Of a DNA stretch of 64,000 nt, positions 32,594 to 64,000 are shown piece by piece. The notes under the pieces were generated by a model. That model ran no database searches. It was not told where the DNA came from and worked only from the letters and a program-made list of their open reading frames with translations. The first letter of the stretch is position 1. The number at the start of each line of letters is the position of its first letter. The stretch lies in NCBI RefSeq assembly GCF_003334315.1, contig NZ_QOWR01000019.1. One strand, written 5' to 3'. Position numbers and translations under genes: made by a program. Origin of the DNA: Escherichia coli (lineage in GTDB: Bacteria; Pseudomonadota; Gammaproteobacteria; Enterobacterales; Enterobacteriaceae).

Positions 32594-35500
32594 TTGAGCC
32601 AGGAATACACTGAAGACAAAGAAGTCACATTGACAAAGTTAAGTAGCGGCCGCCGCCTTCTGGAGGCGTTGCTGATCCTTATTGTCCTGTTTGCCGTCTG
32701 GTTGATGGCTGCCTTACTAAGCTTTAACCCTTCGGACCCCAGCTGGTCGCAAACGGCCTGGCATGAACCTATCCATAATTTAGGTGGGATGCCCGGTGCG
32801 TGGTTGGCAGATACGCTGTTCTTTATTTTTGGCGTGATGGCTTACACCATTCCCGTCATTATTGTCGGCGGTTGTTGGTTTGCCTGGCGTCATCAGTCCA
32901 GCGACGAATACATTGATTATTTTGCCGTTTCGCTACGCATCATTGGCGTTTTGGCGCTCATCCTTACCTCCTGTGGTCTGGCGGCAATCAACGCTGACGA
33001 TATCTGGTATTTTGCCTCCGGTGGCGTCATTGGCAGCTTACTAAGCACTACGCTACAACCACTGCTACACAGTAGCGGGGGAACTATTGCGCTGCTCTGC
33101 GTTTGGGCAGCGGGCCTGACGTTGTTCACCGGTTGGTCATGGGTGACCATTGCTGAAAAACTCGGCGGCTGGATTTTAAACATTCTCACCTTCGCCAGTA
33201 ATCGTACCCGTCGCGATGATACCTGGGTCGATGAAGATGAGTATGAAGACGACGAAGAGTATGAAGATGAAAATCACGGCAAACAGCATGAATCACGCCG
33301 TGCCCGTATTCTTCGCGGCGCGCTAGCGCGTCGTAAACGGTTGGCGGAAAAATTCATTAATCCGATGGGGCGGCAAACAGACGCTGCGTTGTTCTCCGGT
33401 AAGCGGATGGATGATGACGAAGAGATTACCTACACTGCACGCGGTGTGGCTGCCGACCCGGACGACGTCCTATTTTCGGGCAATCGTGCAACGCAGCCAG
33501 AATATGACGAATACGATCCATTATTAAACGGTGCGCCAATTACCGAACCTGTCGCTGTAGCAGCTGCTGCTACCACGGCGACACAAAGCTGGGCTGCGCC
33601 GGTTGAACCTGTGACTCAGACGCCGCCTGTTGCCTCTGTTGATGTTCCACCTGCGCAACCTACAGTAGCCTGGCAGCCTGTACCGGGTCCACAAACGGGA
33701 GAGCCGGTTATTGCTCCTGCACCGGAAGGTTACCCACAGCAGTCACAATATGCGCAGCCTGCATTGCAATATAATGAGCCGCTGCAACAACCAGTACAGC
33801 CGCAGCAGCCGTATTATGCACCTGCAGCTGAACAACCTGCGCAACAGCCGTATTATGCCCCTGCGCCAGAACAACCGGTGGCAGGTAACGCCTGGCAAGC
33901 CGAAGAGCAGCAATCCACTTTTGCTCCACAGTCTACATACCAGACTGAGCAAACTTATCAGCAGCCAGCCGCTCAGGAGCCGTTGTACCAACAGCCGCAA
34001 CCCGTTGAACAGCAGCCTGTTGTGGAGCCTGAACCCGTTGTAGAAGAGACAAAACCCGCGCGTCCGCCGCTTTACTACTTTGAAGAAGTTGAAGAGAAGC
34101 GAGCCCGTGAACGTGAACAACTTGCGGCCTGGTATCAACCGATTCCAGAACCGGTTAAAGAACCAGAACCGATCAAATCTTCGCTGAAAGCACCTTCTGT
34201 TGCAGCAGTACCTCCAGTAGAAGCCGCTGCCGCTGTTTCCCCGCTGGCATCTGGCGTGAAAAAAGCGACACTGGCGACGGGGGCTGCCGCAACCGTTGCC
34301 GCGCCAGTCTTCAGTCTGGCAAATAGCGGTGGACCGCGTCCTCAGGTCAAAGAGGGGATTGGTCCGCAGTTGCCACGACCGAAACGTATCCGCGTGCCAA
34401 CTCGTCGTGAACTGGCGTCTTACGGTATTAAGCTGCCCTCACAGCGTGCGGCGGAAGAAAAAGCCCGTGAAGCCCAGCGCAATCAGTACGATTCTGGCGA
34501 TCAGTACAACGATGATGAAATCGATGCGATGCAGCAGGATGAACTGGCACGTCAGTTCGCCCAGACACAGCAGCAACGCTATGGCGAACAGTATCAACAT
34601 GATGTGCCCGTAAACGCAGAAGATGCAGATGCTGCGGCAGAGGCTGAACTGGCTCGTCAGTTTGCGCAAACTCAACAACAACGTTATTCCGGCGAACAAC
34701 CGGCTGGGGCGAATCCGTTCTCGCTGGATGATTTTGAATTTTCGCCAATGAAAGCGTTGCTGGATGATGGTCCACACGAACCGTTGTTTACGCCAATTGT
34801 TGAACCTGTACAGCAGCCGCAACAACCGGTTGCACCGCAGCAGCAATATCAGCAGCCGCAACAACCAGTTCCGCCGCAGCCGCAGTATCAGCAGCCACAA
34901 CAGCCGGTTGCGCCGCAGCCACAATATCAGCAGCCGCAACAACCGGTTGCGCCACAGCAGCAATATCAGCAGCCGCAACAACCGGTTGCGCCGCAGCAGC
35001 AGTATCAGCAGCCACAACAGCCAGTTGCGCCACAACCGCAGGATACCCTGCTTCATCCGCTGTTGATGCGTAATGGCGACAGCCGTCCGTTGCATAAACC
35101 GACGACGCCGCTGCCTTCTCTGGATTTGCTGACACCGCCGCCGAGCGAAGTGGAGCCGGTAGATACCTTTGCGCTTGAACAAATGGCTCGTCTGGTGGAA
35201 GCGCGTCTGGCTGATTTCCGTATTAAAGCCGATGTCGTCAATTACTCTCCGGGGCCGGTTATCACTCGCTTTGAACTTAACCTGGCTCCTGGCGTAAAAG
35301 CGGCGCGCATTTCTAACTTGTCACGGGACCTTGCCCGTTCACTTTCGACGGTGGCGGTGCGTGTCGTTGAAGTTATTCCTGGCAAACCCTATGTAGGTCT
35401 GGAGTTACCAAATAAAAAACGACAAACCGTTTATCTGCGCGAAGTTTTGGATAACGCCAAATTCCGCGATAATCCGTCGCCATTAACCGTGGTGCTGGGT

Positions 35501-48025: not shown

Positions 48026-48934
48026 TTATTGTGGTCGGTGACGCTGACTCTGGCAGATCTGACCCGTTTTTACATAATCGAGAAATGCGCGCAAGCCGCA
48101 GGACATATACTGGCGGTTTGGATAATAGATCTGGAAGCCTGGACGCTCTGTGCTCCAGTCTCCCAGTACACATTCTAAACGACCAGTATCAAGGTACTCC
48201 TTGATCTGTTCATAGAGCAGATACCCGATACCAGCACCCATCAAAACGGCCTCCAGTTCAGCATCAACATCATCCAGAATGATATTTCCTGCGACAGCAA
48301 TTTCCAGCTCCTTTGCAAATTGCTAGTGGAAAGGTTTGCCGCTGGGATAACGAAAAACAACACATTGATGATTAAGCAGATCATGAGGATGGCGGGGTTT
48401 GCCATATCTTGCAAAGTACTCTGGCGTTGCTGCTACACATAATTTCACTGGCGGGCCGATCGCCACGCTGATCATATCTTTTTCGACGATGCCACTAAGT
48501 CGAACGCCAGCGTCAAAGCCCTGTTGGACGATATCGACAAGAGAGTCGTCAGTTGTGAGCTCGACTTTAATATCAGGATATTCACGTGTGAAACCAACCA
48601 GTAAAGGCATTAAAAATATACGTGCAGCTACCCGGGCGGCATTGATTTTGAGCGTTCCTGTCGGTGTCAGACGAAAATCATTCATCTCATCTAACATGAT
48701 CTGAATTTCGTCGAAAGCTGGGCGCAATCGTTCATAGAGATTAGAACCCGCTTCCGTTAACGATACGCTTCGGGTTGTCCGATTGAATAAGCGAATTTTA
48801 AGACGTTGTTCCAGTGTTTTAATACTATGGCTAATGGCGGACGAGGATAAGCCTAATTCATCGCCCGCTGCACGAAAGCTTTGATTACGAGCCACGGCAA
48901 AGAAAGTGGCAAAGTCAGACATATTCATCCGCAT
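48026..48934 (-). pseudogene. ycaN: LysR-family transcriptional regulator YcaN interrupted by an in-frame amber (TAG) codon at about codon 204
   Basis: 203-aa N-terminal ORF (HTH MSDFATFFAVARNQSFRAAGDELGLSSSAISHSIKTLE) and 72-aa C-terminal ORF are in the same frame, separated by TAG at about 48322-48324 (+ strand cta). Confidence 0.75.
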
Positions 48935-49033
48935 TAGTGAAAATCCTTCATTAACTCATCCTGAATCATCACGTTTACAGGATTATGCCGCCTGCGTAAA
49001 GTGCGCTCCAGAACTTAACGTGGAGGTAAAATT

Positions 49034-49623
49034 ATGCAGTCTGAACGTATTTATTTGGTATGGGCCATCCTCGTCATGATTCATTGACCGCACATATTGC
49101 TGATGCGATCCATCAGCGGGCAATGGAGCGGAAAATACAGGTGACGGAACTCGATTTATATCGGCGTAATTTCAACCCAGTGATGACGCTGGAAGATGAA
49201 CCAGACTGGAAGAATATGGATAAACGTTATTCTCCAGAGGTTCATCAGCTTTATTCAGAGCTGCTTGAACATGACACGTTAGTGGTGGTTTTTCCTCTCT
49301 GGTGGTACAGCTTCCCGGCAATGCTAAAAGGATATATTGACAGAGTATGGAATAATGGGCTGGCTTATGGAGATGGGCAGAAATTACCATTCAATAAAGT
49401 TCGTTGGGTGGCGCTGGTTGGAGGAGACAAAGAATCATTTGTCCAGATGGGCTGGGAAAAAAATATAAGCGATTATTTGATAAATATGTGCAGTTATCTT
49501 GGTATTGAAGATGCCGATGTCACTTTCTTGTGTAATACAGTGGTATTCGATGGGCAAGAACTTCATGCGAGCTATTATCAGTCGTTATTATCTCAGGTAC
49601 GGGATATGGTAGATACACTATAA
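49034..49623 (+). pseudogene. ycaK: NAD(P)H:quinone oxidoreductase-family protein YcaK with apparent -1 frameshift in a C-run near codon 11 (or sequencing error)
   Basis: ATG at 49034 with RBS ggagg encodes MQSERIYLVWA then stops after 17 codons; the conserved frame (HPRHDSLTA...) resumes from ATG 49060 as the 187-aa ORF; a single extra C in gggcc would restore one continuous reading frame. Confidence 0.7.
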
Positions 49624-49661
49624 AATGTGTTAAAAACGCTGTAGCAGAATGAAGCGCGGAA

Positions 49662-49698
49662 TAAAAAAGCGGCAACTCAATAAAGTTGCCGCTTTACG
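49662..49698. terminator. bidirectional terminator between ycaK and pflA
   Basis: hairpin agcggcaact-caataa-agttgccgct flanked by A-run and T-rich tract. Confidence 0.75.
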
Positions 49699-49704
49699 GG
49701 GAAA

Positions 49705-50445
49705 TTAGAACATTACCTTATGACCGTACTGCTCAAGAATGCCTTTCACGCGTTCCATGGTCTCTTTCTTAGGTGGTTTAACACCGTCGAGTTTGTACTC
49801 TTCACCCATTGCCACCCATTTGTGTTTGCCCAGCTCGTGGTAGGGGAGGAGTTCGATTTTCTCAACGTTGCCCATATCACGGGTAAATTCACCGAGGCGA
49901 TGCGCTGAATCGTCATCGTCAGACCAGCCTGGGACAACAACGTAGCGGATCCACACCTTCACATTTTTGTTCGCCAGATATTTGGCGAACTCCAGCGTGC
50001 GGTGGTTGGAAACTCCAACCAGATTTTGGTGGATCTCGTCGTTCATCTGTTTGAGATCGAGCATTACCAGGTCGGTTACTTCCAGCAGTTCATCAATCAC
50101 CGGATCGTAACGACGAACAAAACCGTTGGTGTCCAGACAGGTATGAATGCCTTCTTTTTTGCAGGCGCGGAACCAGTCACGAACAAACTCAGCTTGTAGG
50201 ATTGCCTCACCGCCGGATGCGGTAACGCCGCCGCCGGAAGCGTTCATAAAGTGGCGATAGGTCACCACCTCTTTCATTAAATCTTCAACGGTAACTTCTT
50301 TACCGCCATGCGTATCCCAGGTGTCGCGGTTATGACAATACAGGCAGCGCATCAGGCAGCCCTGGAAAAAGGTGATAAAGCGAATACCCGGGCCGTCTAC
50401 GGTTCCACAGGATTCAAAGGAGTGAATGCGACCAATAACTGACAT
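49705..50445 (-). CDS. pflA: pyruvate formate-lyase activating enzyme (radical SAM)
   Basis: radical SAM motif [10 protein letters not shown]; 246 aa from internal ATG. Confidence 0.94.
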
Positions 50446-50636
50446 TGCGGTGTTTCTCCAGATGTGGCCCATCTGAGGCCGTGTTGGTGCGCAGCTCGAA
50501 GGCTACGTCGAGTCTGTTTTGGCAGTCACCTTAAAGTATAGATAGCTGACAAAAAAGGCTCTCGCGCTAAAAAAGGCCCCACTTTCGTGGAGCCTTTATT
50601 GTACGCTTTTTACTGTACGATTTCAGTCAAATCTAA

Positions 50637-52919
<2,283 letters not shown>

Positions 52920-52973
52920 GTAACACCTACCTTCTTAAGTGGATTTTTTATTTACTGCGTACTTCGACAACCA

Positions 52974-53831
52974 TTAATGGTGGTCGTTTTCACGCAGGTA
53001 AATGACCCAGTATGTCAACCCAACCAACAAACCACCACCGATAATGTTGCCGATCGTAACCGGAATCAGGTTATCAGTGATGAAATTCATCACGGTCAGG
53101 TGAGAAAAATTTTCCGGTGCAGAACCGACTGCGGTCCAAAATTCCGGGGATGCGAAGTCGCGGATTACAATACCCATCGGGATCATAAACATGTTTGCGA
53201 TACTGTGCTCAAAACCGCTGGCAACAAACATCGCGACCGGCAGCACCATAATGAACGCTTTGTCCATCAGGCTGCGGCCAGAATAACTCATCCATACTGC
53301 CAGACATACCATCAGGTTTGCCAGGATACCAAGACAGACGGCCTCAATAAAAGTATGGTGCACTTTGTGGTCGGCGGTTTGTAGGACGTTTAGTCCCCAT
53401 TGACCATTTGCGGTCATATACTCGCCGGAAAGCCACATTAAAAGTACAAACAGCAGTGCGCCGACCAGGTTGCCAAAATAGACATTTAGCCAGTTTTTCG
53501 CCAACTGACCCCAGGTGATGCGCCCACTCGCCTTAGCAACAACAATCAACACGGTGGAAGTAAAGAGATCGGCTCCGCAGACAACACAAAGAATCAGCCC
53601 CAGAGAGAAGCAAATGCCGCCAACCAGTTTTGCCATGCCGAAGGGCATTGTGCCTGTGCCAGTGGTTGCTGTGATATAGAAGACGAATGCGATTGAGATG
53701 AAAACACCGGCGGTAATCGCCAGATAGAAAGTCTTAAGCGGATGTTTCGTTGCTTTATAGACACCCGCCTCTTCGGCCACTTTGGCCATTGCAGCAGGAA
53801 GTAAAAGATCAAAAGGGTTGTCAGCTTTCAC
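52974..53831 (-). CDS. focA: formate channel FocA
   Basis: FNT-family membrane ORF; start placed at GTG (VKADNPF) giving 285 aa. Confidence 0.88.
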   Translation of the reverse strand: MKADNPFDLLLPAAMAKVAEEAGVYKATKHPLKTFYLAITAGVFISIAFVFYITATTGTGTMPFGMAKLVGGICFSLGLILCVVCGADLFTSTVLIVVAKASGRITWGQLAKNWLNVYFGNLVGALLFVLLMWLSGEYMTANGQWGLNVLQTADHKVHHTFIEAVCLGILANLMVCLAVWMSYSGRSLMDKAFIMVLPVAMFVASGFEHSIANMFMIPMGIVIRDFASPEFWTAVGSAPENFSHLTVMNFITDNLIPVTIGNIIGGGLLVGLTYWVIYLRENDHH

Positions 53832-54236
53832 ACTAACTCTCTCTTTATTAAGTCGGCGACGAGATACTAACAAAGCATTATAGATGAGAAATTGATATAG
53901 ATCATATCTCGCCTGGCTTATAGGCCCGTAACTCGCATGGTTTTTATGCAAATACGGAGTAAATATTTGATTATCCAAATAAAAATAAATTTTAAAAATT
54001 AACAAATGAGTTGAATTTTTTCCGCATCCTCCGCTAAAACAGTTAATTAAAAGGGAGCACCAGGCGAATAAAGTAACAATATCGATCGTATTTATTAAAT
54101 ACAAATTACCGATATTTAACCTTATAATTACAATTATTTTATTAATGCAAATATATGTAAAGCGGGGCATTAAAAAAACGCCCCGTAATATAACTCAGAC
54201 GAATCATTAAGCCTACATTGCGTAGGCTATTTGATT

Positions 54237-55997
54237 TTATTTTGCCCAGAATGCTGCTTTGGCGCGCTGCAGCTTTTCGTAGGCCTTCAACAGCGACTGA
54301 TGTGCAGCAAACGCGTGCAGATCGCTATCTACTGGTTGCAAGCCATAAAACGCCGCTTCGCCGCTCATTGCCGCACTGGCGGCTTCCACGGCATCTGCGC
54401 CGTACATGCGAACAAACGCATTCAGATATTGCAGCGGCTGGCGATCTTCTTCCTGCGCCAGTAATAACAACGTTTGCAGGCAGCGATAATAGTTGGCGCG
54501 TTCCGGGCTGAATACCGATGAGTTAAATTCCATCGTCCATTCGGTCCAGACCAGAGCCTGTTCCAGATCGCCACCAGCCAACGCCAGCATGGCTTTTAAT
54601 TCACCGATACGCAGGGTGTACCAACCGTTATCCGACCCGGTCGCCAGACCCAACAGCTCACGCACGCGGGTAAAGTCATCAAAACCTTCTTCATCCAGTT
54701 GCTCGATGAGGTTCAGGTAATCTTCTTTTTCCCACTCGCTGCCTGGTAGCGAAAGAATCGTTTCACGTAAATGGCTGCCCATACTGTTATTCGCGAGCCA
54801 CAGATCTTCAGCCGGATAAATATCGGACATGCCAGGCACGATAATACGGCAAGCATAAACGCCCAGATGCTCGTAATCGGCAATATAAACTTCTTTATCT
54901 TCTTTGTTGAAGATAGCCATCAGTGTGGCGAACTCTTCTTCCGTGGTGCCGGAGAAATTCCAGTCCACAAACGGATAATCGGCATCCTGCTTGAACAGGT
55001 CCCAGGAGATTAAACCGCTGGAATCGATAAAGTGCGTTTCGAGGTTGGTATGTTCAGCGACTTCTTCATCATCGAAGGTTGGCGGAGTAAACACATCCAA
55101 ATCTTTCAGGCCACGACCTTGCAGCAGCTCGGTCACGGTACGTTCCAGTGCTACGCCAAAATCAGGATGCGCACCGAAAGAGGCAAAGCAGGTACCGTTA
55201 GCAGGATTGAACAGTACCACGCAAATCACCGGATACTGGCCGCCAAGCGAACCGTCATAAGCGAAGATTGGGAAACCCTCCGCTTCCAGCGTTTCGATGG
55301 CTTCAACTACTGCTGGGTAACGCGCCAGCACGTCTGCCGGGATCTCTGGCAGGCTGATGCTTTCAGCAATAATGCGGTTTTTCACGTAGCGTTCGAAAAC
55401 TTCAGACAATCCCTGAACGCGTGCTTCGTTGCGGGTATTACCTGCGGACATACCGTTGGAGACGTACAGGTTACCAATGATATTCATCGGAATATAAACG
55501 GTCTGATTGTCGGACTGACGCGTAAACGGCAGGCCGCAAATACCACGATCTTCGTTACCGGATTGTAGGTCAATCAGCATGCTGCCGGTCAGTTCATTCT
55601 CCGGATCATAAAACGCGCGCAGACGGTCATCGAGCAGCCCTTCTGGCACATCGTCATTTTCGGTCAGTGGGAACCATTTTTCGTTGGGATAATGCACGAA
55701 CGGACCGTTGGCGATGGTTTCGCCCAGCCAGAAGTCCGCAAAAAAGTAGTTGGTTGAGAGACGCTCGAAATATTCACCGAGTGCAGAAGCCAGCGCCGCT
55801 TTCTTGGTTGCGCCTTTACCGTTGGTAAAACACAGTGCGCACTCTTTGTCGCGAATATGTACAGACCAGACGTTAGGCACGGGATTCAGCCAGGAGGCCT
55901 CTTCAATCTGAAAGCCGAGGTCTGAAAGTTTTTGCTGGAAGCGAGCGATGGAATCTTCCAGAGCGGCATCTTTGCCGGGGATAAATGTTTGCGTCAT
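54237..55997 (-). CDS. ycaO: YcaO-domain protein (ribosomal protein S12 methylthiolation accessory factor)
   Basis: 586 aa from internal ATG (MTQTFIPGKD); stand-alone YcaO, no adjacent RiPP partner genes. Confidence 0.9.
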   Translation of the reverse strand: MTQTFIPGKDAALEDSIARFQQKLSDLGFQIEEASWLNPVPNVWSVHIRDKECALCFTNGKGATKKAALASALGEYFERLSTNYFFADFWLGETIANGPFVHYPNEKWFPLTENDDVPEGLLDDRLRAFYDPENELTGSMLIDLQSGNEDRGICGLPFTRQSDNQTVYIPMNIIGNLYVSNGMSAGNTRNEARVQGLSEVFERYVKNRIIAESISLPEIPADVLARYPAVVEAIETLEAEGFPIFAYDGSLGGQYPVICVVLFNPANGTCFASFGAHPDFGVALERTVTELLQGRGLKDLDVFTPPTFDDEEVAEHTNLETHFIDSSGLISWDLFKQDADYPFVDWNFSGTTEEEFATLMAIFNKEDKEVYIADYEHLGVYACRIIVPGMSDIYPAEDLWLANNSMGSHLRETILSLPGSEWEKEDYLNLIEQLDEEGFDDFTRVRELLGLATGSDNGWYTLRIGELKAMLALAGGDLEQALVWTEWTMEFNSSVFSPERANYYRCLQTLLLLAQEEDRQPLQYLNAFVRMYGADAVEAASAAMSGEAAFYGLQPVDSDLHAFAAHQSLLKAYEKLQRAKAAFWAK

Positions 55998-56126
55998 GAA
56001 AATCACTTTAGTCGTACGGAAAGCGCGCAATAATACGGGTTTTATCTCAAAGGCGCTATCACCGCCGCCATGCCGATGAACTGTTGACTATGCTTTTAGC
56101 GGATAAACCACGTTAAGAGCATAAAA

Positions 56127-56819
56127 ATGAAGGCGTTCGATCTCCACCGTATGGCATTTGATAAAGTGCCTTTTGATTTCCTTGGCGAAGTTGCACTACG
56201 TAGTCTTTATACCTTTGTACTGGTCTTTTTGTTCCTCAAAATGACCGGAAGACGCGGTGTGCGGCAGATGTCGCTGTTTGAAGTTTTAATCATTCTGACG
56301 CTGGGATCAGCGGCGGGAGATGTGGCGTTTTATGATGATGTGCCGATGGTCCCGGTACTTATCGTCTTTATTACTCTGGCGTTGTTATACCGCCTGGTAA
56401 TGTGGTTGATGGCGCACAGTGAAAAACTGGAAGATCTTCTGGAAGGCAAGCCAGTTGTCATTATTGAAGATGGCGAGCTGGCCTGGTCGAAACTCAATAA
56501 CTCCAACATGACGGAATTTGAGTTCTTTATGGAGCTACGATTGCGTGGCGTGGAGCAGCTGGGGCAGGTACGTCTGGCGATTCTCGAAACCAACGGGCAA
56601 ATCAGTGTCTATTTCTTTGAAGATGACAAGGTGAAACCGGGTTTACTTATTTTACCCAGTGATTGTACGCAGCGTTACAAAGTGGTGCCGGAGTCGGCGG
56701 ACTATGCCTGTATTCGTTGTAGTGAAATCATTCATATGAAAGTGGGGGAAAAACAATTATGTCCGCGCTGTGCAAATCCAGAATGGACGAAGGCAAGTCG
56801 GGCAAAACGGGTGACCTGA
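56127..56819 (+). CDS. ycaP: DUF421-family inner-membrane protein YcaP
   Basis: 230-aa ORF with N-terminal TM helices. Confidence 0.88.
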   Translation: MKAFDLHRMAFDKVPFDFLGEVALRSLYTFVLVFLFLKMTGRRGVRQMSLFEVLIILTLGSAAGDVAFYDDVPMVPVLIVFITLALLYRLVMWLMAHSEKLEDLLEGKPVVIIEDGELAWSKLNNSNMTEFEFFMELRLRGVEQLGQVRLAILETNGQISVYFFEDDKVKPGLLILPSDCTQRYKVVPESADYACIRCSEIIHMKVGEKQLCPRCANPEWTKASRAKRVT

Positions 56820-57017
56820 CAGTAAAAACATCGGCTTTTTGCTAATAATCCGAGAGATTCTTTTGTGTGATGCAAGCCACATTTTTGCCCTCAACGGTTT
56901 TACTCATTGCGATGTGTGTCACTGAATGATAAAACCGATAGCCACAGGAATAATGTATTACCTGTGGTCGCAATCGATTGACCGCGGGTTAATAGCAACG
57001 CAACGTGGTGAGGGGAA

Positions 57018-58106
57018 ATGGCTCAAATCTTCAATTTTAGTTCTGGTCCGGCAATGCTACCGGCAGAGGTGCTTAAACAGGCTCAACAGGAACTGCGCGA
57101 CTGGAACGGTCTTGGTACGTCGGTGATGGAAGTGAGTCACCGTGGCAAAGAGTTCATTCAGGTTGCAGAGGAAGCCGAGAAGGATTTTCGCGATCTTCTT
57201 AATGTCCCCTCCAACTACAAGGTATTATTCTGCCATGGCGGTGGTCGCGGTCAGTTTGCTGCGGTACCGCTGAATATTCTCGGTGATAAAACCACCGCAG
57301 ATTATGTTGATGCCGGTTACTGGGCGGCAAGTGCCATTAAAGAAGCGAAAAAATACTGCACGCCTAATGTCTTTGACGCCAAAGTGACTGTTGATGGTCT
57401 GCGCGCGGTTAAGCCAATGCGTGAATGGCAACTCTCTGATAATGCTGCTTATATGCATTATTGCCCGAATGAAACCATCGATGGTATCGCCATCGACGAA
57501 ACGCCAGACTTCGGCGCAGATGTGGTGGTCGCCGCTGACTTCTCTTCAACCATTCTTTCCCGTCCGATTGACGTCAGCCGTTATGGTGTAATTTACGCTG
57601 GCGCGCAGAAAAATATCGGCCCGGCTGGCCTGACAATCGTCATCGTTCGTGAAGATTTGCTGGGCAAAGCGAATATCGCGTGTCCGTCGATTCTGGATTA
57701 TTCCATCCTCAACGATAACGGCTCCATGTTTAACACGCCGCCGACATTTGCCTGGTATCTATCTGGTCTGGTCTTTAAATGGCTGAAAGCGAACGGCGGT
57801 GTAGCTGAAATGGATAAAATCAATCAGCAAAAAGCAGAACTGCTATATGGGGTGATTGATAACAGCGATTTCTACCGCAATGACGTGGCGAAAGCTAACC
57901 GTTCACGGATGAACGTGCCGTTCCAGTTGGCGGACAGTGCGCTTGACAAATTGTTCCTTGAAGAGTCTTTTGCTGCTGGCCTTCATGCACTGAAAGGTCA
58001 CCGTGTGGTCGGCGGAATGCGCGCTTCTATTTATAACGCCATGCCGCTGGAAGGCGTTAAAGCGCTGACAGACTTCATGGTTGAGTTCGAACGCCGTCAC
58101 GGTTAA
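57018..58106 (+). CDS. serC: phosphoserine aminotransferase
   Basis: 362-aa PLP aminotransferase class [19 protein letters not shown]. Confidence 0.95.
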
Positions 58107-58125
58107 TGCCGAAATTTTGCTTAAT

Positions 58126-58152
58126 CCCCACAGCCAGCCTGTGGGGTTTTTA
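58126..58152 (+). terminator. intercistronic terminator/attenuator between serC and aroA
   Basis: hairpin ccccacag-ccagc-ctgtgggg followed by T5. Confidence 0.7.
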
Positions 58153-58176
58153 TTTCTGTTGTAGAGAGTTGAGTTC

Positions 58177-59460
58177 ATGGAATCCCTGACGTTACAACCC
58201 ATCGCTCGTGTCGATGGCACTATTAATCTGCCCGGTTCCAAGAGCGTTTCTAACCGCGCTTTATTGCTGGCGGCATTAGCACACGGCAAAACAGTATTAA
58301 CCAATCTGCTGGATAGCGATGACGTGCGCCATATGCTGAATGCATTAACAGCGTTAGGGGTAAGCTATACGCTTTCAGCCGATCGTACGCGTTGCGAAAT
58401 TATCGGTAACGGCGGTCCATTACACGCAGAAGGTGCCCTGGAGTTGTTCCTCGGTAACGCCGGAACGGCAATGCGTCCGCTGGCGGCAGCTCTTTGTCTG
58501 GGTAGCAATGATATTGTGCTGACCGGTGAGCCGCGTATGAAAGAACGCCCGATTGGTCATCTGGTGGATGCGCTGCGCCTGGGCGGGGCGAAGATCACTT
58601 ACCTGGAACAAGAAAATTATCCGCCGTTGCGTTTACAGGGCGGCTTTACTGGCGGCAACGTTGACGTTGATGGCTCCGTTTCCAGCCAATTCCTCACCGC
58701 ACTGTTAATGACTGCGCCTCTTGCGCCGGAAGATACGGTGATTCGTATTAAAGGCGATCTGGTTTCTAAACCTTATATCGACATCACACTCAATCTGATG
58801 AAGACGTTTGGTGTTGAAATTGAAAATCAGCACTATCAACAATTTGTCGTAAAAGGCGGGCAGTCTTATCAGTCTCCGGGTACTTATTTGGTCGAAGGCG
58901 ATGCATCTTCGGCTTCTTACTTTCTGGCAGCAGCAGCAATCAAAGGCGGCACTGTAAAAGTGACCGGTATTGGACGTAACAGTATGCAGGGTGATATTCG
59001 TTTTGCTGATGTGCTGGAAAAAATGGGCGCGACCATTTGCTGGGGCGATGATTATATTTCCTGCACGCGTGGTGAACTGAACGCTATTGATATGGATATG
59101 AACCATATTCCTGATGCGGCGATGACCATTGCCACGGCGGCGTTATTTGCAAAAGGCACCACCACGCTGCGCAATATCTATAACTGGCGTGTTAAAGAGA
59201 CCGATCGCCTGTTTGCGATGGCAACAGAACTGCGTAAAGTCGGCGCGGAAGTGGAAGAGGGGCACGATTACATTCGTATCACTCCTCCGGAAAAACTGAA
59301 CTTTGCCGAGATCGCGACATACAATGATCACCGGATGGCGATGTGTTTCTCGCTGGTGGCGTTGTCAGATACACCAGTGACGATTCTTGATCCCAAATGC
59401 ACGGCCAAAACATTTCCGGATTATTTCGAGCAGCTGGCGCGGATTAGCCAGGCAGCCTGA
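58177..59460 (+). CDS. aroA: 3-phosphoshikimate 1-carboxyvinyltransferase (EPSP synthase)
   Basis: 427-aa [38 protein letters not shown]. Confidence 0.96.
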
Positions 59461-59628
59461 ATGAACAACGGGCAATAAATAGCCAAATCTTTCTTTATCA
59501 AAACGTCGGCACATTGTCGGCGTTTTTTTTCGGACCTTGTGAGTCATTTTGATTAATGGTAGCGTCGCTTGTCAATGTAAGTTGTTGATACATAATATTT
59601 ATATATGATTAATCAACGGATGATTCAC

Positions 59629-60393
59629 ATGAAGAATACTAAATTACTGCTGGCGATTGCGACCTCTGCAGCATTACTGACAGGGTGTCAAAATACCCAC
59701 GGTATTGATACCAATATGGCTATCAGCTCCGGTTTAAATGCCTATAAAGCAGCAACATTAAGCGATGCCGATGCAAAAGCGATTGCCAATCAGGGCTGTG
59801 CCGAAATGGACAGCGGCAATCAAGTCGCAAGTAAATCCAGCAAGTACGGTAAACGTCTGGCAAAAATCGCCAAAGCATTGGGTAACAATATTAATGGCAC
59901 GCCGGTCAACTATAAGGTTTATATGACCAGCGACGTCAACGCATGGGCGATGGCGAACGGCTGTGTTCGTGTCTACAGTGGCCTGATGGACATGATGAAT
60001 GACAACGAAATTGAAGGCGTTCTGGGCCATGAACTGGGCCACGTCGCGTTGGGTCACTCGCTGGCTGAAATGAAAGCTTCTTATGCGATCGTTGCCGCAC
60101 GCGATGCCATTTCAGCTACCAGCGGTGTGGCTTCCCAGCTTTCCCGCTCACAATTAGGTGATATCGCAGAAGGCGCTATCAATGCTAAATACTCCCGTGA
60201 TAAAGAGTCCGAAGCAGATGATTTCTCCTTTGATCTGTTGAAGAAACGTGGCATCAGCACCCAGGGGCTGGTTGGCAGCTTTGAAAAACTGGCTAGCCTG
60301 GATGGCGGTCGCACCCAGTCCATGTTTGACTCTCACCCACCATCAACAGAGCGTGCGCAACACATCCGTGATCGTATCGCCTCTGGTAAGTAA
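59629..60393 (+). CDS. ycaL: M48-family metalloprotease lipoprotein YcaL
   Basis: lipobox LLTGC and zinc motif HELGH; 254 aa from second in-frame ATG. Confidence 0.9.
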   Translation: MKNTKLLLAIATSAALLTGCQNTHGIDTNMAISSGLNAYKAATLSDADAKAIANQGCAEMDSGNQVASKSSKYGKRLAKIAKALGNNINGTPVNYKVYMTSDVNAWAMANGCVRVYSGLMDMMNDNEIEGVLGHELGHVALGHSLAEMKASYAIVAARDAISATSGVASQLSRSQLGDIAEGAINAKYSRDKESEADDFSFDLLKKRGISTQGLVGSFEKLASLDGGRTQSMFDSHPPSTERAQHIRDRIASGK

Positions 60394-60565
60394 ATCATTG
60401 TCATCTTTCGGGCTGGTCTTCTGCCAGCCCGCTATAATTGCGCAATAAATCCCCATCTGAATACAGACAAAACTGGTTTTTGCACACAACGTTAACGATT
60501 TGTGGCGTCGGCGCGTATAATGCGCGCGGTTATGTTAACGGTACGCCTGTTTTAAGGAGATAAAG

Positions 60566-61249
60566 ATGACGGCAATTGCCCCGGTTATTACCATTGATGG
60601 CCCAAGCGGTGCAGGGAAAGGCACCTTGTGTAAGGCTATGGCGGAAGCGTTGCAATGGCATCTGCTGGACTCGGGTGCAATTTATCGCGTACTGGCATTG
60701 GCGGCATTACATCACCATGTTGATGTTGCGTCGGAAGATGCGCTGGTACCGCTGGCATCCCATCTGGATGTACGTTTTGTGTCGACCAATGGCAATCTGG
60801 AAGTGATCCTCGAAGGGGAAGATGTCAGCGGCGAAATTCGTACTCAGGAAGTGGCGAATGCAGCTTCACAAGTCGCGGCATTCCCACGCGTTCGTGAAGC
60901 ATTATTGCGTCGCCAACGCGCGTTTCGCGAATTACCAGGTCTGATTGCCGATGGCCGCGACATGGGAACGGTGGTATTCCCTGATGCACCAGTGAAAATT
61001 TTCCTTGACGCCTCCTCGGAAGAACGTGCGCATCGCCGCATGCTACAGTTGCAGGAGAAGGGCTTTAGTGTTAACTTTGAGCGCCTTTTGGCCGAGATCA
61101 AAGAACGCGACGACCGCGATCGTAACCGAGCGGTAGCGCCACTGGTTCCGGCAGCCGATGCTTTAGTGTTGGATTCCACCACCTTAAGCATTGAGCAAGT
61201 GATTGAAAAAGCGCTACAATACGCGCGCCAGAAATTGGCTCTCGCATAA
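60566..61249 (+). CDS. cmk: cytidylate kinase
   Basis: P-loop GPSGAGKGT; 227 aa. Confidence 0.95.
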
Positions 61250-61359
61250 GCGACCGAATTTGCAGTACCCCCGTTGCAATGGAATGACAGCGGGTATGTT
61301 AAACAACCCCATCCGGCATGGAGCCAGGTGGACGTTAAATATAAACCTGAAGATTAAAC

Positions 61360-63033
61360 ATGACTGAATCTTTTGCTCAACTCTTTGAAGAGTCCTTAAA
61401 AGAAATCGAAACCCGCCCGGGTTCTATCGTTCGTGGCGTTGTTGTTGCTATCGACAAAGACGTAGTACTGGTTGACGCTGGTCTGAAATCTGAGTCCGCC
61501 ATCCCGGCTGAGCAGTTCAAAAACGCCCAGGGCGAGCTGGAAATCCAGGTAGGTGACGAAGTTGACGTTGCTCTGGACGCAGTAGAAGACGGCTTCGGTG
61601 AAACTCTGCTGTCCCGTGAGAAAGCTAAACGTCACGAAGCCTGGATCACGCTGGAAAAAGCTTACGAAGATGCTGAAACTGTTACCGGTGTTATCAACGG
61701 CAAAGTTAAGGGCGGCTTCACTGTTGAGCTGAACGGTATTCGTGCGTTCCTGCCAGGTTCTCTGGTAGACGTTCGTCCGGTGCGTGACACTCTGCACCTG
61801 GAAGGCAAAGAGCTTGAATTTAAAGTAATCAAGCTGGATCAGAAGCGCAACAACGTTGTTGTTTCTCGTCGTGCCGTTATCGAATCCGAAAACAGCGCAG
61901 AGCGCGATCAGCTGCTGGAAAACCTGCAGGAAGGCATGGAAGTTAAAGGTATCGTTAAGAACCTCACTGACTACGGTGCATTCGTTGATCTGGGCGGCGT
62001 TGACGGCCTGCTGCACATCACTGACATGGCCTGGAAACGCGTTAAGCATCCGAGCGAAATCGTCAACGTGGGCGACGAAATCACTGTTAAAGTGCTGAAG
62101 TTCGACCGCGAACGTACCCGTGTATCCCTGGGCCTGAAACAGCTGGGCGAAGATCCGTGGGTAGCTATCGCTAAACGTTATCCGGAAGGTACCAAACTGA
62201 CTGGTCGCGTGACCAACCTGACCGACTACGGCTGCTTCGTTGAAATCGAAGAAGGCGTTGAAGGCCTGGTACACGTTTCCGAAATGGATTGGACCAACAA
62301 AAACATCCACCCGTCCAAAGTTGTTAACGTTGGCGATGTAGTGGAAGTTATGGTTCTGGATATCGACGAAGAACGTCGTCGTATCTCCCTGGGTCTGAAA
62401 CAGTGCAAAGCTAACCCGTGGCAGCAGTTCGCGGAAACCCACAACAAGGGCGACCGTGTTGAAGGTAAAATCAAGTCTATCACTGACTTCGGTATCTTCA
62501 TCGGCCTGGACGGCGGCATCGACGGCCTGGTTCACCTGTCTGACATCTCCTGGAACGTTGCAGGCGAAGAAGCAGTTCGTGAATACAAAAAAGGCGACGA
62601 AATCGCTGCAGTTGTTCTGCAGGTTGACGCAGAACGTGAACGTATCTCCCTGGGCGTTAAACAGCTCGCAGAAGATCCGTTCAACAACTGGGTTGCTCTG
62701 AACAAGAAAGGCGCTATCGTAACCGGTAAAGTAACTGCAGTTGACGCTAAAGGCGCAACCGTAGAACTGGCTGACGGCGTTGAAGGTTACCTGCGTGCTT
62801 CTGAAGCATCCCGTGACCGCGTTGAAGACGCTACCCTGGTTCTGAGCGTTGGCGACGAAGTTGAAGCTAAATTCACCGGCGTTGATCGTAAAAACCGCGC
62901 AATCAGCCTGTCTGTTCGTGCGAAAGACGAAGCTGACGAGAAAGATGCAATCGCAACTGTTAACAAACAGGAAGATGCAAACTTCTCCAACAACGCAATG
63001 GCTGAAGCTTTCAAAGCAGCTAAAGGCGAGTAA
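61360..63033 (+). CDS. rpsA: 30S ribosomal protein S1
   Basis: six S1 repeats; 557 aa; strongly biased codon usage. Confidence 0.97.
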
Positions 63034-63079
63034 TTCTCTGACTCTTCGGGATTTTTATTCCGAAGTTTGTTGAGTTTAC

Positions 63080-63108
63080 TTGACAGATTGCAGGTTTCGT
63101 CCTGTAAT
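63080..63108 (+). promoter_or_regulatory. sigma70-type promoter for ihfB
   Basis: ttgaca-17 nt-tgtaat upstream of ihfB. Confidence 0.5.
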
Positions 63109-63192
63109 CAAGCACTAAGGGCGGCTACGGCCGCCCTTAATCAATGCAGCAACAGCAGCCGCTTAATTTGCCTTTAAGGAACCGGAGGAATC

Positions 63193-63477
63193 ATGACCAA
63201 GTCAGAATTGATAGAAAGACTTGCCACCCAGCAATCGCACATTCCCGCCAAGACGGTTGAAGATGCAGTAAAAGAGATGCTGGAGCATATGGCCTCGACT
63301 CTTGCGCAGGGCGAGCGTATTGAAATCCGCGGTTTCGGCAGTTTCTCTTTGCACTACCGCGCACCACGTACCGGACGTAATCCGAAGACTGGCGATAAAG
63401 TAGAACTGGAAGGAAAATACGTTCCTCACTTTAAACCTGGTAAAGAACTGCGCGATCGCGCCAATATTTACGGTTAA
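63193..63477 (+). CDS. ihfB: integration host factor subunit beta
   Basis: 94-aa HU/IHF-family [14 protein letters not shown]. Confidence 0.96.
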
Positions 63478-63504
63478 GTTTTTTACTCAAACTTGAACGA
63501 GAGA

Positions 63505-63530
63505 AAAGCACCTGTCGGGTGCTTTTTTCA
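63505..63530 (+). terminator. rho-independent terminator of ihfB
   Basis: hairpin agcacc..ggtgct followed by T6. Confidence 0.75.
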
Positions 63531-63684
63531 TTTCTCTAATCTGGAACTGGAAGCTGCCTCGCAGAGTTTTGAACAGTTTTCACCCTTTCGTTAAATTCTT
63601 CTGAATATGCCTCGGGGAACGCAAAATTCCCACCAGACAACCGCTCAACAAAGTTGCACACTTTCCATAAACAGGGAGGGGTGC

Positions 63685-63801
63685 ATGAAAATAACGACAG
63701 TCGGTGTATGCATAATTAGCGGAATTTTTCCGTTGCTGATTTTGCCCCAATTGCCTGGGACATTAACCCTTGCGTTTCTGACTCTCTTCGCCTGCGGGTG
63801 A
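63685..63801 (+). pseudogene. ycaI: 5' fragment of ycaI (ComEC-family membrane protein) truncated by IS1
   Basis: ORF MKITTVGVCIISGIFPLLILPQLPGTLTLAFLTLFACG runs into the IS1 terminal inverted repeat and stops. Confidence 0.7.
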
Positions 63802-64000
63802 TGCTGCCAACTTACTGATTTAGTGTATGATGGTGTTTTTGAGGTGCTCCAGTGGCTTCTGTTTCTATCAGCTGTCCCTCCTGTTCAGCTACTGACGGGG
63901 TGGTGCGTAACGGCAAAAGCACCGCCGGACATCAGCGCTATCTCTGCTCTCACTGCCGTAAAACATGGCAACTGCAGTTCACTTACACCGCTTCTCAACC
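63797..64000 (+). mobile_element. insA: IS1 left end (terminal inverted repeat plus 5' part of insA), continues beyond window
   Basis: ggtgatgctgccaacttactgatttagtgtatgatggtgtttttgaggtgctccagtggcttctgtttctatcagctgtccc is the IS1 terminus; downstream frame encodes InsA N-terminus [42 protein letters not shown]. Confidence 0.92.

Follow-up and report, generated by a model that had tools for sequence, protein, structure and literature searches.

Shigella genomes carry 100-200 or more copies of the insertion sequence (IS) IS1, and their reductive evolution combines IS1 expansion with point pseudogenes and IS-interrupted genes. In Escherichia coli, ycaN, ycaK and ycaM were described as a conserved cluster in which YcaN acts on adjacent genes; its reported targets are ycaC, ycaD and focA, and when ycaN is deleted, hundreds of genes change in expression and formate is used less well (PMC9068703). 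Here, a 64-kb stretch of the E. coli chromosome (contig NZ_QOWR01000019.1 of assembly GCF_003334315.1; the whole stretch of 64,000 nucleotides is referred to as the window) was analyzed, which extends from artM to the start of ycaI and corresponds to approximately 900-964 kb of the K-12 chromosome. At its right-hand end ycaN, ycaK and ycaI are each disrupted. With a probability of about 0.85, these are three heritable loss-of-function lesions which accumulated sequentially in a phylogroup-A commensal lineage with an expanded and active IS1 population. A first-pass annotation, made from the sequence alone, had described a nonsense mutation in ycaN, a homopolymer frameshift in ycaK and an IS1 insertion in ycaI, and all three were present in the sequence at the places it gave. 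It had taken them as independent lesions among intact core genes, and as a sign either of a Shigella-like, host-restricted or laboratory lineage or of assembly errors.

Alleles and junctions were counted species-wide by searching 5,426 complete RefSeq E. coli genomes. The window is colinear with the complete genomes PI12, cM2a and Z1323PEC0011, from which it differs by 7-13 substitutions over the compared lengths (39 kb in cM2a and 64 kb in Z1323PEC0011); over all 64,000 bases Z1323PEC0011 differs by 13 substitutions, one nonsense mutation among them. A K-12 background was ruled out, since K-12 has intact copies of the three genes and 0.48% of sites differ between the window and K-12 MG1655.

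The ycaK pseudogene (49034-49623, plus strand), which belongs to a flavodoxin-like-fold NAD(P)H oxidoreductase, carries a 1-bp deletion that changes TGGGCCCATCC to TGGGCCATCC. The deletion shortens a tract of only three C from CCC to CC at 49065-49066 (codons 11/12), and translation yields the 17-codon product MQSERIYLVWAILVMIH, which ends at the stop codon at 49085-49087. In the frame-restored protein Flavodoxin_2 (PF02525) was matched by residues 5-179 (E = 9e-39), and the frameshift thus precedes nearly the whole domain. A sequencing or assembly artefact has to be considered for this lesion and for the ycaN substitution in particular, as a single-base deletion in a run of C is a classic long-read error type. 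However, the identical frameshift was found, base for base, in 135 of the 5,426 genomes, which were assembled independently, and the NCBI prokaryotic genome annotation pipeline (PGAP) calls the allele 'frameshifted' in all five relatives that were inspected (PI12, cM2a, Z1323PEC0011, CP53 and 2018-11-3CC).

The second lesion interrupts ycaI, a ComEC/Rec2 homologue whose family label rests on the RefSeq names 'ComEC family protein' and 'metallo-beta-lactamase superfamily inner membrane protein YcaI'. The gene starts with ATG at 63685 and is cut after nucleotide 112, leaving a 5' remnant of 37 codons and one base (63685-63796, plus strand) that aligns with K-12 ycaI up to 63796; the native frame now ends in MKITTVGVCIISGIFPLLILPQLPGTLTLAFLTLFACG and a stop. 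An exact 23-bp IS1 left inverted repeat, GGTGATGCTGCCAACTTACTGAT, follows directly at 63797-63819 and is the only match in the window, where none is expected by chance. On the same strand as ycaI, insA opens with GTG at 63852, approximately 55 bp inside the left end. The window ends within the element, of which it holds the left 204 bp (63797-64000, plus strand, same orientation as ycaI). In PI12, cM2a and Z1323PEC0011, the coding sequence that PGAP places at this position is annotated as an IS1A-family transposase.

The 9-bp target sequence tcgcctgcg is located at 63788-63796. The full element and the second copy of this duplication lie outside the window and were seen in the relative PI12 only: the junction is identical there, and a 768-bp IS1 (L001 19772-20539) with a right inverted repeat is flanked by tcgcctgcg on both sides. 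The insertion is therefore a genuine transposition event. An 80-bp query spanning the ycaI/IS1 junction was found in 54 records, or approximately 53 after removal of ATCC 8739, a spurious two-piece match; this recurrence, together with the proper target duplication, argues against an artefact here as well. Since ycaI is present in 5,424 of the 5,426 genomes (99.96%), it belongs to the core genome of the species and is the only one of the three lesioned genes whose loss affects conserved content. Homologues of com genes are reported to function in the use of DNA as a nutrient or in competitive stationary-phase fitness. In cM2a a second IS1 resides within the already interrupted ycaI, which suggests that the gene is no longer maintained.

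The third lesion affects ycaN (48026-48934, minus strand), encoding a LysR-type regulator. Codon 204 is changed from TGG to TAG (W204*; stop codon at 48323-48325), corresponding to a plus-strand C>T at 48324; C is found at this position in PI12, cM2a, Z1323PEC0011 and K-12, and ycaN is intact in CP53. The remaining open reading frame encodes 203 residues (48323-48934). When Trp204 was restored, Pfam detected HTH_1 at residues 7-63 (E = 2e-20) and LysR_substrate at residues 91-290 (E = 2e-33). The stop falls within LysR_substrate: HTH_1 is kept, and the last 99 of the 302 residues (204-302), including 87 of the 200 residues of the effector-binding domain, are lost.

The TAG allele was present in 0 of the 5,426 complete genomes and was on this ground first assumed to be private or erroneous. 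This assumption was overturned by draft and run-level assemblies. An exact-product look-up of the 203 residues gave matches in 54 blocks of indexed public assemblies. Contig SAHT01000037.1 of GCA_004172665.1, which was seen in four samples, is identical to window positions 38323-58934 but for one difference, and it shares with the window 41310T, 48324T, 49615A, 56743T and the ycaK frameshift. An assembly of SRR14867000 likewise contains TAG, the ycaK frameshift and 49615A, and its DNA around the TAG codon is also the same as that of the window except for one base. The nonsense codon thus occurs along with three neighbouring derived single-nucleotide changes in one independent assembly and with one of them in another. 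Each of the three lesions recurs in independent assemblies, and the assembly errors that the first-pass annotation had offered as an alternative are very improbable as a source of any of them. Arithmetic on the coordinates places the start of the GCA_004172665.1 draft contig approximately 120 bp past the position of the IS1 junction, as would be expected if the contig were broken at IS1::ycaI.

Other changes were observed at the same codon of ycaN. An independent W204* allele, as TGA, exists in several lineages that are 0.5-1.6% divergent from the window and have an intact ycaK; among the complete genomes it was found in one (JNEC-KY175). Further, three unrelated draft contigs terminate exactly at ycaN codon 203/204 (equivalent to window position 48325/48326), where an IS or another repeat may be inserted.

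The three lesions are nested. CP53 contains the ycaK frameshift together with intact ycaI and ycaN, and all junction genomes that were inspected (PI12, cM2a, Z1323PEC0011 and 2018-11-3CC) carry the frameshift. At least 15 frameshift genomes are without IS1::ycaI, as 29 of them are listed outside the first 40 junction matches and only 14 junction records are left. The order is hence ycaK frameshift (135 genomes), IS1::ycaI (approximately 53 genomes) and ycaN TAG (drafts only). The mechanisms were different as well: ycaK lost a base by slippage within a short tract of C, ycaI was hit by a transposition, and a Trp codon of ycaN underwent a G>A transition. The claim of independence made by the first-pass annotation accordingly holds in the mutational sense, as three mechanisms acted at three times. 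In the selective sense it probably does not hold for ycaN and ycaK, because this adjacent, divergent regulator/enzyme pair is often lost as a unit.

From these observations the following course of events is proposed. Slippage would have removed one C of CCC in ycaK as the oldest event, leaving an oxidoreductase that ends after 17 codons. Later, IS1 would have entered ycaI at codon 38, generating a 9-bp target duplication and severing the promoter, the ribosome-binding site, the start codon and 37 residues. The latest event would have been a G>A change in a sub-lineage that converted Trp204 of ycaN to TAG, presumably as follow-on decay once ycaK was already dead. As judged from the sequence, the function of YcaN, YcaK and YcaI would be lost, and selection on the three genes would be relaxed.

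The expanded IS1 population is documented by the relatives that share the junction, in which 32, 36, 37 or at least 40 chromosomal IS1 left ends were counted. The species median is 10 places per genome, one of which is the ycaI half of the query, resulting in an IS1 median of approximately 9-10. The IS1-rich background that the first-pass annotation had supposed was thus borne out. IS1 is also still moving in the lineage: new copies were detected in aqpZ and ycaI of cM2a, the former with the duplication GCCAACGAC, and in ycaN of 2018-11-3CC. To estimate the extent of gene disruption, four random 50-kb samples of PI12 were inspected, which contained 2 IS1, 3 IS5-like and 1 IS3 copies and, among 213 features, five clearly disrupted genes (gspL, hyfC, hyfD, chbB and yahL) and three tiny fragments. 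When the target region was included, 7-10 of 273 features were disrupted in 268 kb (2.6-3.7%). Extrapolation to the PI12 genome gives approximately 47-52 IS1 copies and 120-170 disrupted genes, and the latter number is not out of the ordinary for E. coli genomes annotated by PGAP.

These numbers bear on reductive evolution of a Shigella-like or host-restricted type, in which a small population and a massive spread of IS elements would drive genome-wide decay. The IS1 load of the relatives, which lies in about the top 7% of records (381 records with at least 40 pieces, against the median of 10 places), the fresh IS1 copies which relatives carry in this 64-kb region (in aqpZ, ycaI and ycaN), the frequent IS5-like and IS3 copies in the PI12 samples and the fairly small genomes of the relatives (4.42-5.07 Mb) would all fit such a process. 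However, the sources of the junction genomes are very diverse and comprise human, pig, chicken, duck, turkey, dog, frog, fish, pangolin, cattle and sediment. The disrupted-gene rate of 2.6-3.7% extrapolates to a number of disrupted genes that is usual for E. coli, approximately 47 IS1 copies are well below the numbers for Shigella, and the PI12 samples show intact lacIZYA, ast and prp genes and, gspL excepted, intact gsp genes. In addition, ycaN and ycaK belong to the accessory genes of E. coli in any case. IS1 copies in the hundreds or a pseudogene fraction of at least 10% were not found when counted on the relatives (32 to at least 40 IS1; 2.6-3.7%). Reductive evolution is consequently judged to be quite unlikely.

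The junction-sharing genomes include isolates of sequence type ST206 from healthy Vietnamese residents (PMC7056805) and a clinical isolate of ST793 (PMC6206212); the sequence types of the relatives were taken from these two papers, and the 64-kb window itself contains no multilocus sequence typing locus. Taken together, the lineage is rich in IS1, and its description as Shigella-like, host-restricted or a laboratory strain is not supported as such, given the diverse hosts, approximately 3% disrupted genes, an intact lacIZYA and near-identity to wild relatives. In biological terms, the window shows gene decay of an ordinary kind, in an E. coli lineage that is already known and widely distributed. 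RefSeq relatives already carry annotations of two of the lesions, and the ycaN TAG occurs only in draft and run-level assemblies.

The close spacing of the lesions is not meaningful in itself. At a disruption rate of 2.6-3.7%, the chance of at least three lesions in a block of 14 genes is P = 0.006-0.015, so that approximately 2-5 such blocks are expected per genome, and two of the lesions here also hit one functional pair. Similar clustering was seen in a random PI12 sample, in which hyfC and hyfD contain adjacent frameshifts (L011 41861-44262).

Relative to the closest complete relatives, nine derived substitutions were identified on the branch of the window (18843, 21256, 28927, 33764, 41310, 48324, 49615, 56743 and 59001). 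Eight of the nine are G:C>A:T, which has a nominal P of 0.001-0.04 under plausible spontaneous mutation spectra, and none is in the Dcm context CCWGG. Eight lie in intact genes, and six of these alter the protein; the protein changes are macA E119K, cydD P469L, ftsK V391L, dmsA A329V, ycaN W204* and ycaP A206V. At least four of the derived alleles are common to independent samples (GCA_004172665.1), and the substitutions are therefore real mutations. The bias towards G:C>A:T, including the nonsense codon, and the high proportion of protein-altering changes could point to a laboratory or mutagenised source strain. Such a source is hardly credible, as there are only nine substitutions per 64 kb, compared with 0-4 private ones in wild relatives, the same alleles occur in several independently sequenced samples, and the closest relatives are field isolates. 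A mutator or mutagenesis signal was likewise considered and set aside, since nine substitutions with alleles shared among samples are not enough evidence for it.

The first-pass annotation had counted all three disrupted genes as core genes, which is correct for ycaI and incorrect for ycaN and ycaK. The ycaN-ycaK segment was found with at least 80% coverage in 3,316 of the 5,426 complete genomes (61%) and is absent from 39%: approximately 1,050 further genomes keep a short remnant only, and approximately 1,060 have no match at all. In O157:H7 strain 611, for example, ycaM is followed by a 111-bp remnant of the ycaN 3' end (L031 3501-3611) and then by pflA. The pair can thus be dispensed with, and as a rule both genes are lost together. 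Where it is present, it has also been hit repeatedly and in different ways: in 2018-11-3CC, which has the ycaK frameshift, by an IS1 in ycaN, in XH987 by an IS1 in ycaK and in GCA_040800585.1 by a 402-bp deletion within ycaK.

After the death of ycaK, selection on ycaN may have been relaxed. In genomes with the frameshift, ycaN was knocked out twice independently (by TAG and by IS1), which fits this idea, the statistics being only suggestive. It is even conceivable, and put forward tentatively as the less probable case, that the pair decays in a fixed order, with the enzyme first and the regulator second, in which case these at least two knockouts would be instances of the second step. If the excess of ycaN hits is real, YcaK would be the selectively relevant target of YcaN, which would provide a functional link for two uncharacterised y-genes, and the locus would represent a small natural example of the decay of a regulator after loss of its target.

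The same recurrence could also be explained by adaptive loss, that is, by selection in this lineage for inactivation of YcaN/YcaK, with their formate or redox-linked regulation, and of YcaI. Independent knockouts have arisen repeatedly in ycaN (TAG, TGA and IS1) and in ycaK (frameshift, IS1 and deletion), the frameshift and the IS1 insertion are each present in dozens of geographically scattered isolates, and a ycaN deletion is published to affect formate use and the expression levels of hundreds of genes (PMC9068703). Relaxed selection, however, predicts recurrence equally well, 39% of genomes simply lack the pair, the second IS1 in the broken ycaI of cM2a looks like neutral accumulation, and the spread of the alleles is explained by hitch-hiking in a successful clone. 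Adaptive loss is therefore regarded as unlikely, and sequential accumulation of the lesions in an IS1-rich commensal lineage is preferred.

Several observations weigh against this preferred interpretation. First, the nesting of approximately 53 genomes in 135 was checked on the matches listed and on examples rather than exhaustively, and the IS1 and pseudogene loads are those of relatives and of a 268-kb sample of PI12 rather than of the source genome. Second, the published targets of YcaN are ycaC, ycaD and focA, not ycaK; with all three of them intact here, a loss of YcaN is not necessarily neutral. A single additional ycaN hit among approximately 53 relatives is, with a rough chance estimate of approximately 0.06, only suggestive.

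Third, two of the disrupted genes retain open reading frames. PGAP models the remainder of ycaI as an intact ComEC protein of 726 residues (PI12, L001 20521-22701, WP_032234501.1); this model starts at an ATA codon inside the right inverted repeat of IS1 and is probably an annotation artefact. In ycaK the frameshift puts a previously out-of-frame ATG at 49060 in frame, and a restart reading frame of 187 residues exists (49060-49623, plus strand), consisting of MG and YcaK residues 12-196. A Flavodoxin_2 product of 187 residues is called in GCA_004172665.1 and SRR14867000. No Shine-Dalgarno sequence was found upstream of this reading frame, and the Pfam Flavodoxin_2 match is shortened in it by its initial seven residues (5-11). 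These would form the first beta-strand, and the 187-residue product would hence be non-functional.

The remainder of the window is in good order. ycaN and ycaK are separated by a divergent intergenic region of 99 bp (48935-49033), in which a ribosome-binding site for ycaK, GGAGG, was read from the sequence at 49022-49026. The eleven genes from pflA to ihfB (pflA, pflB, focA, ycaO, ycaP, serC, aroA, ycaL, cmk, rpsA and ihfB; 49705-63477) are full-length open reading frames, in agreement with the intact neighbours described by the first-pass annotation, and their coordinates are those of intact PGAP genes in Z1323PEC0011 and PI12. The sole changes in them are ycaP A206V (56743) and a synonymous change in aroA (59001). 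No lesion was found elsewhere in the 64 kb; the genes upstream of ycaN are all intact, as judged from their open reading frames and from comparison with the relatives. In CP53 a frameshift was observed in ycaL (L008 8544-9315). In the repeats of the Gln/Pro-rich linker of ftsK (window positions approximately 34860-34960), the window and PI12 differ in register and length, and FtsK of PI12 is shorter than FtsK of cM2a or K-12.

For practical purposes, the three lesions can be used as nested lineage markers (ycaK frameshift, IS1::ycaI and ycaN W204* as TAG). They also illustrate that pseudogenes clustered in one window can stem from events that lie far apart in time and can include accessory as well as core genes, and they call for caution in annotation, as an IS1-truncated ycaI is modelled as intact and a 187-residue 'YcaK' is reported by some gene callers. 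The repeated and varied destruction of ycaN-ycaK across E. coli offers a modest lead for studies on these y-genes. Beyond annotation hygiene and strain typing the lesions are of little importance.

When compared with described systems, the element in ycaI agrees with the IS1 family in its exact left inverted repeat, the start of insA, the interruption of a coding sequence and its occurrence in a multicopy lineage with new insertions. Of the insA/insB' arrangement with programmed frameshift that characterizes the family, the window holds the first 204 bp only, whereas the relatives show the 768-bp element, the right inverted repeat and the 9-bp duplication. It differs from described cases of inactivation by IS1 in that the insertion is so near the start of ycaI that the downstream part is still modelled as an intact protein by PGAP.

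YcaN resembles LysR-type regulators with a divergently transcribed target in its HTH_1 and LysR_substrate domains, the 99-bp divergent region and the ycaN-ycaK-ycaM cluster, but differs in that ycaC, ycaD and focA rather than ycaK were reported as its targets (PMC9068703). With Shigella the lineage shares an expansion of IS1 over typical E. coli, point pseudogenes and IS-interrupted genes. It differs from Shigella in its broad range of hosts, approximately 3% disrupted genes, an intact lac operon and the accessory nature of two of the three genes, and its approximately 32-50 IS1 copies are far below the Shigella number given above. A further parallel is the presence/absence polymorphism of ycaN-ycaK in E. 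coli itself, as in O157:H7 and approximately 39% of genomes, where the same two genes are lost with the same outcome. Elsewhere, however, this polymorphism results from a single deletion of approximately 1.4 kb that leaves a 111-bp remnant, whereas in the window the DNA is kept and the pair was disrupted stepwise, by a frameshift and then by a nonsense mutation.

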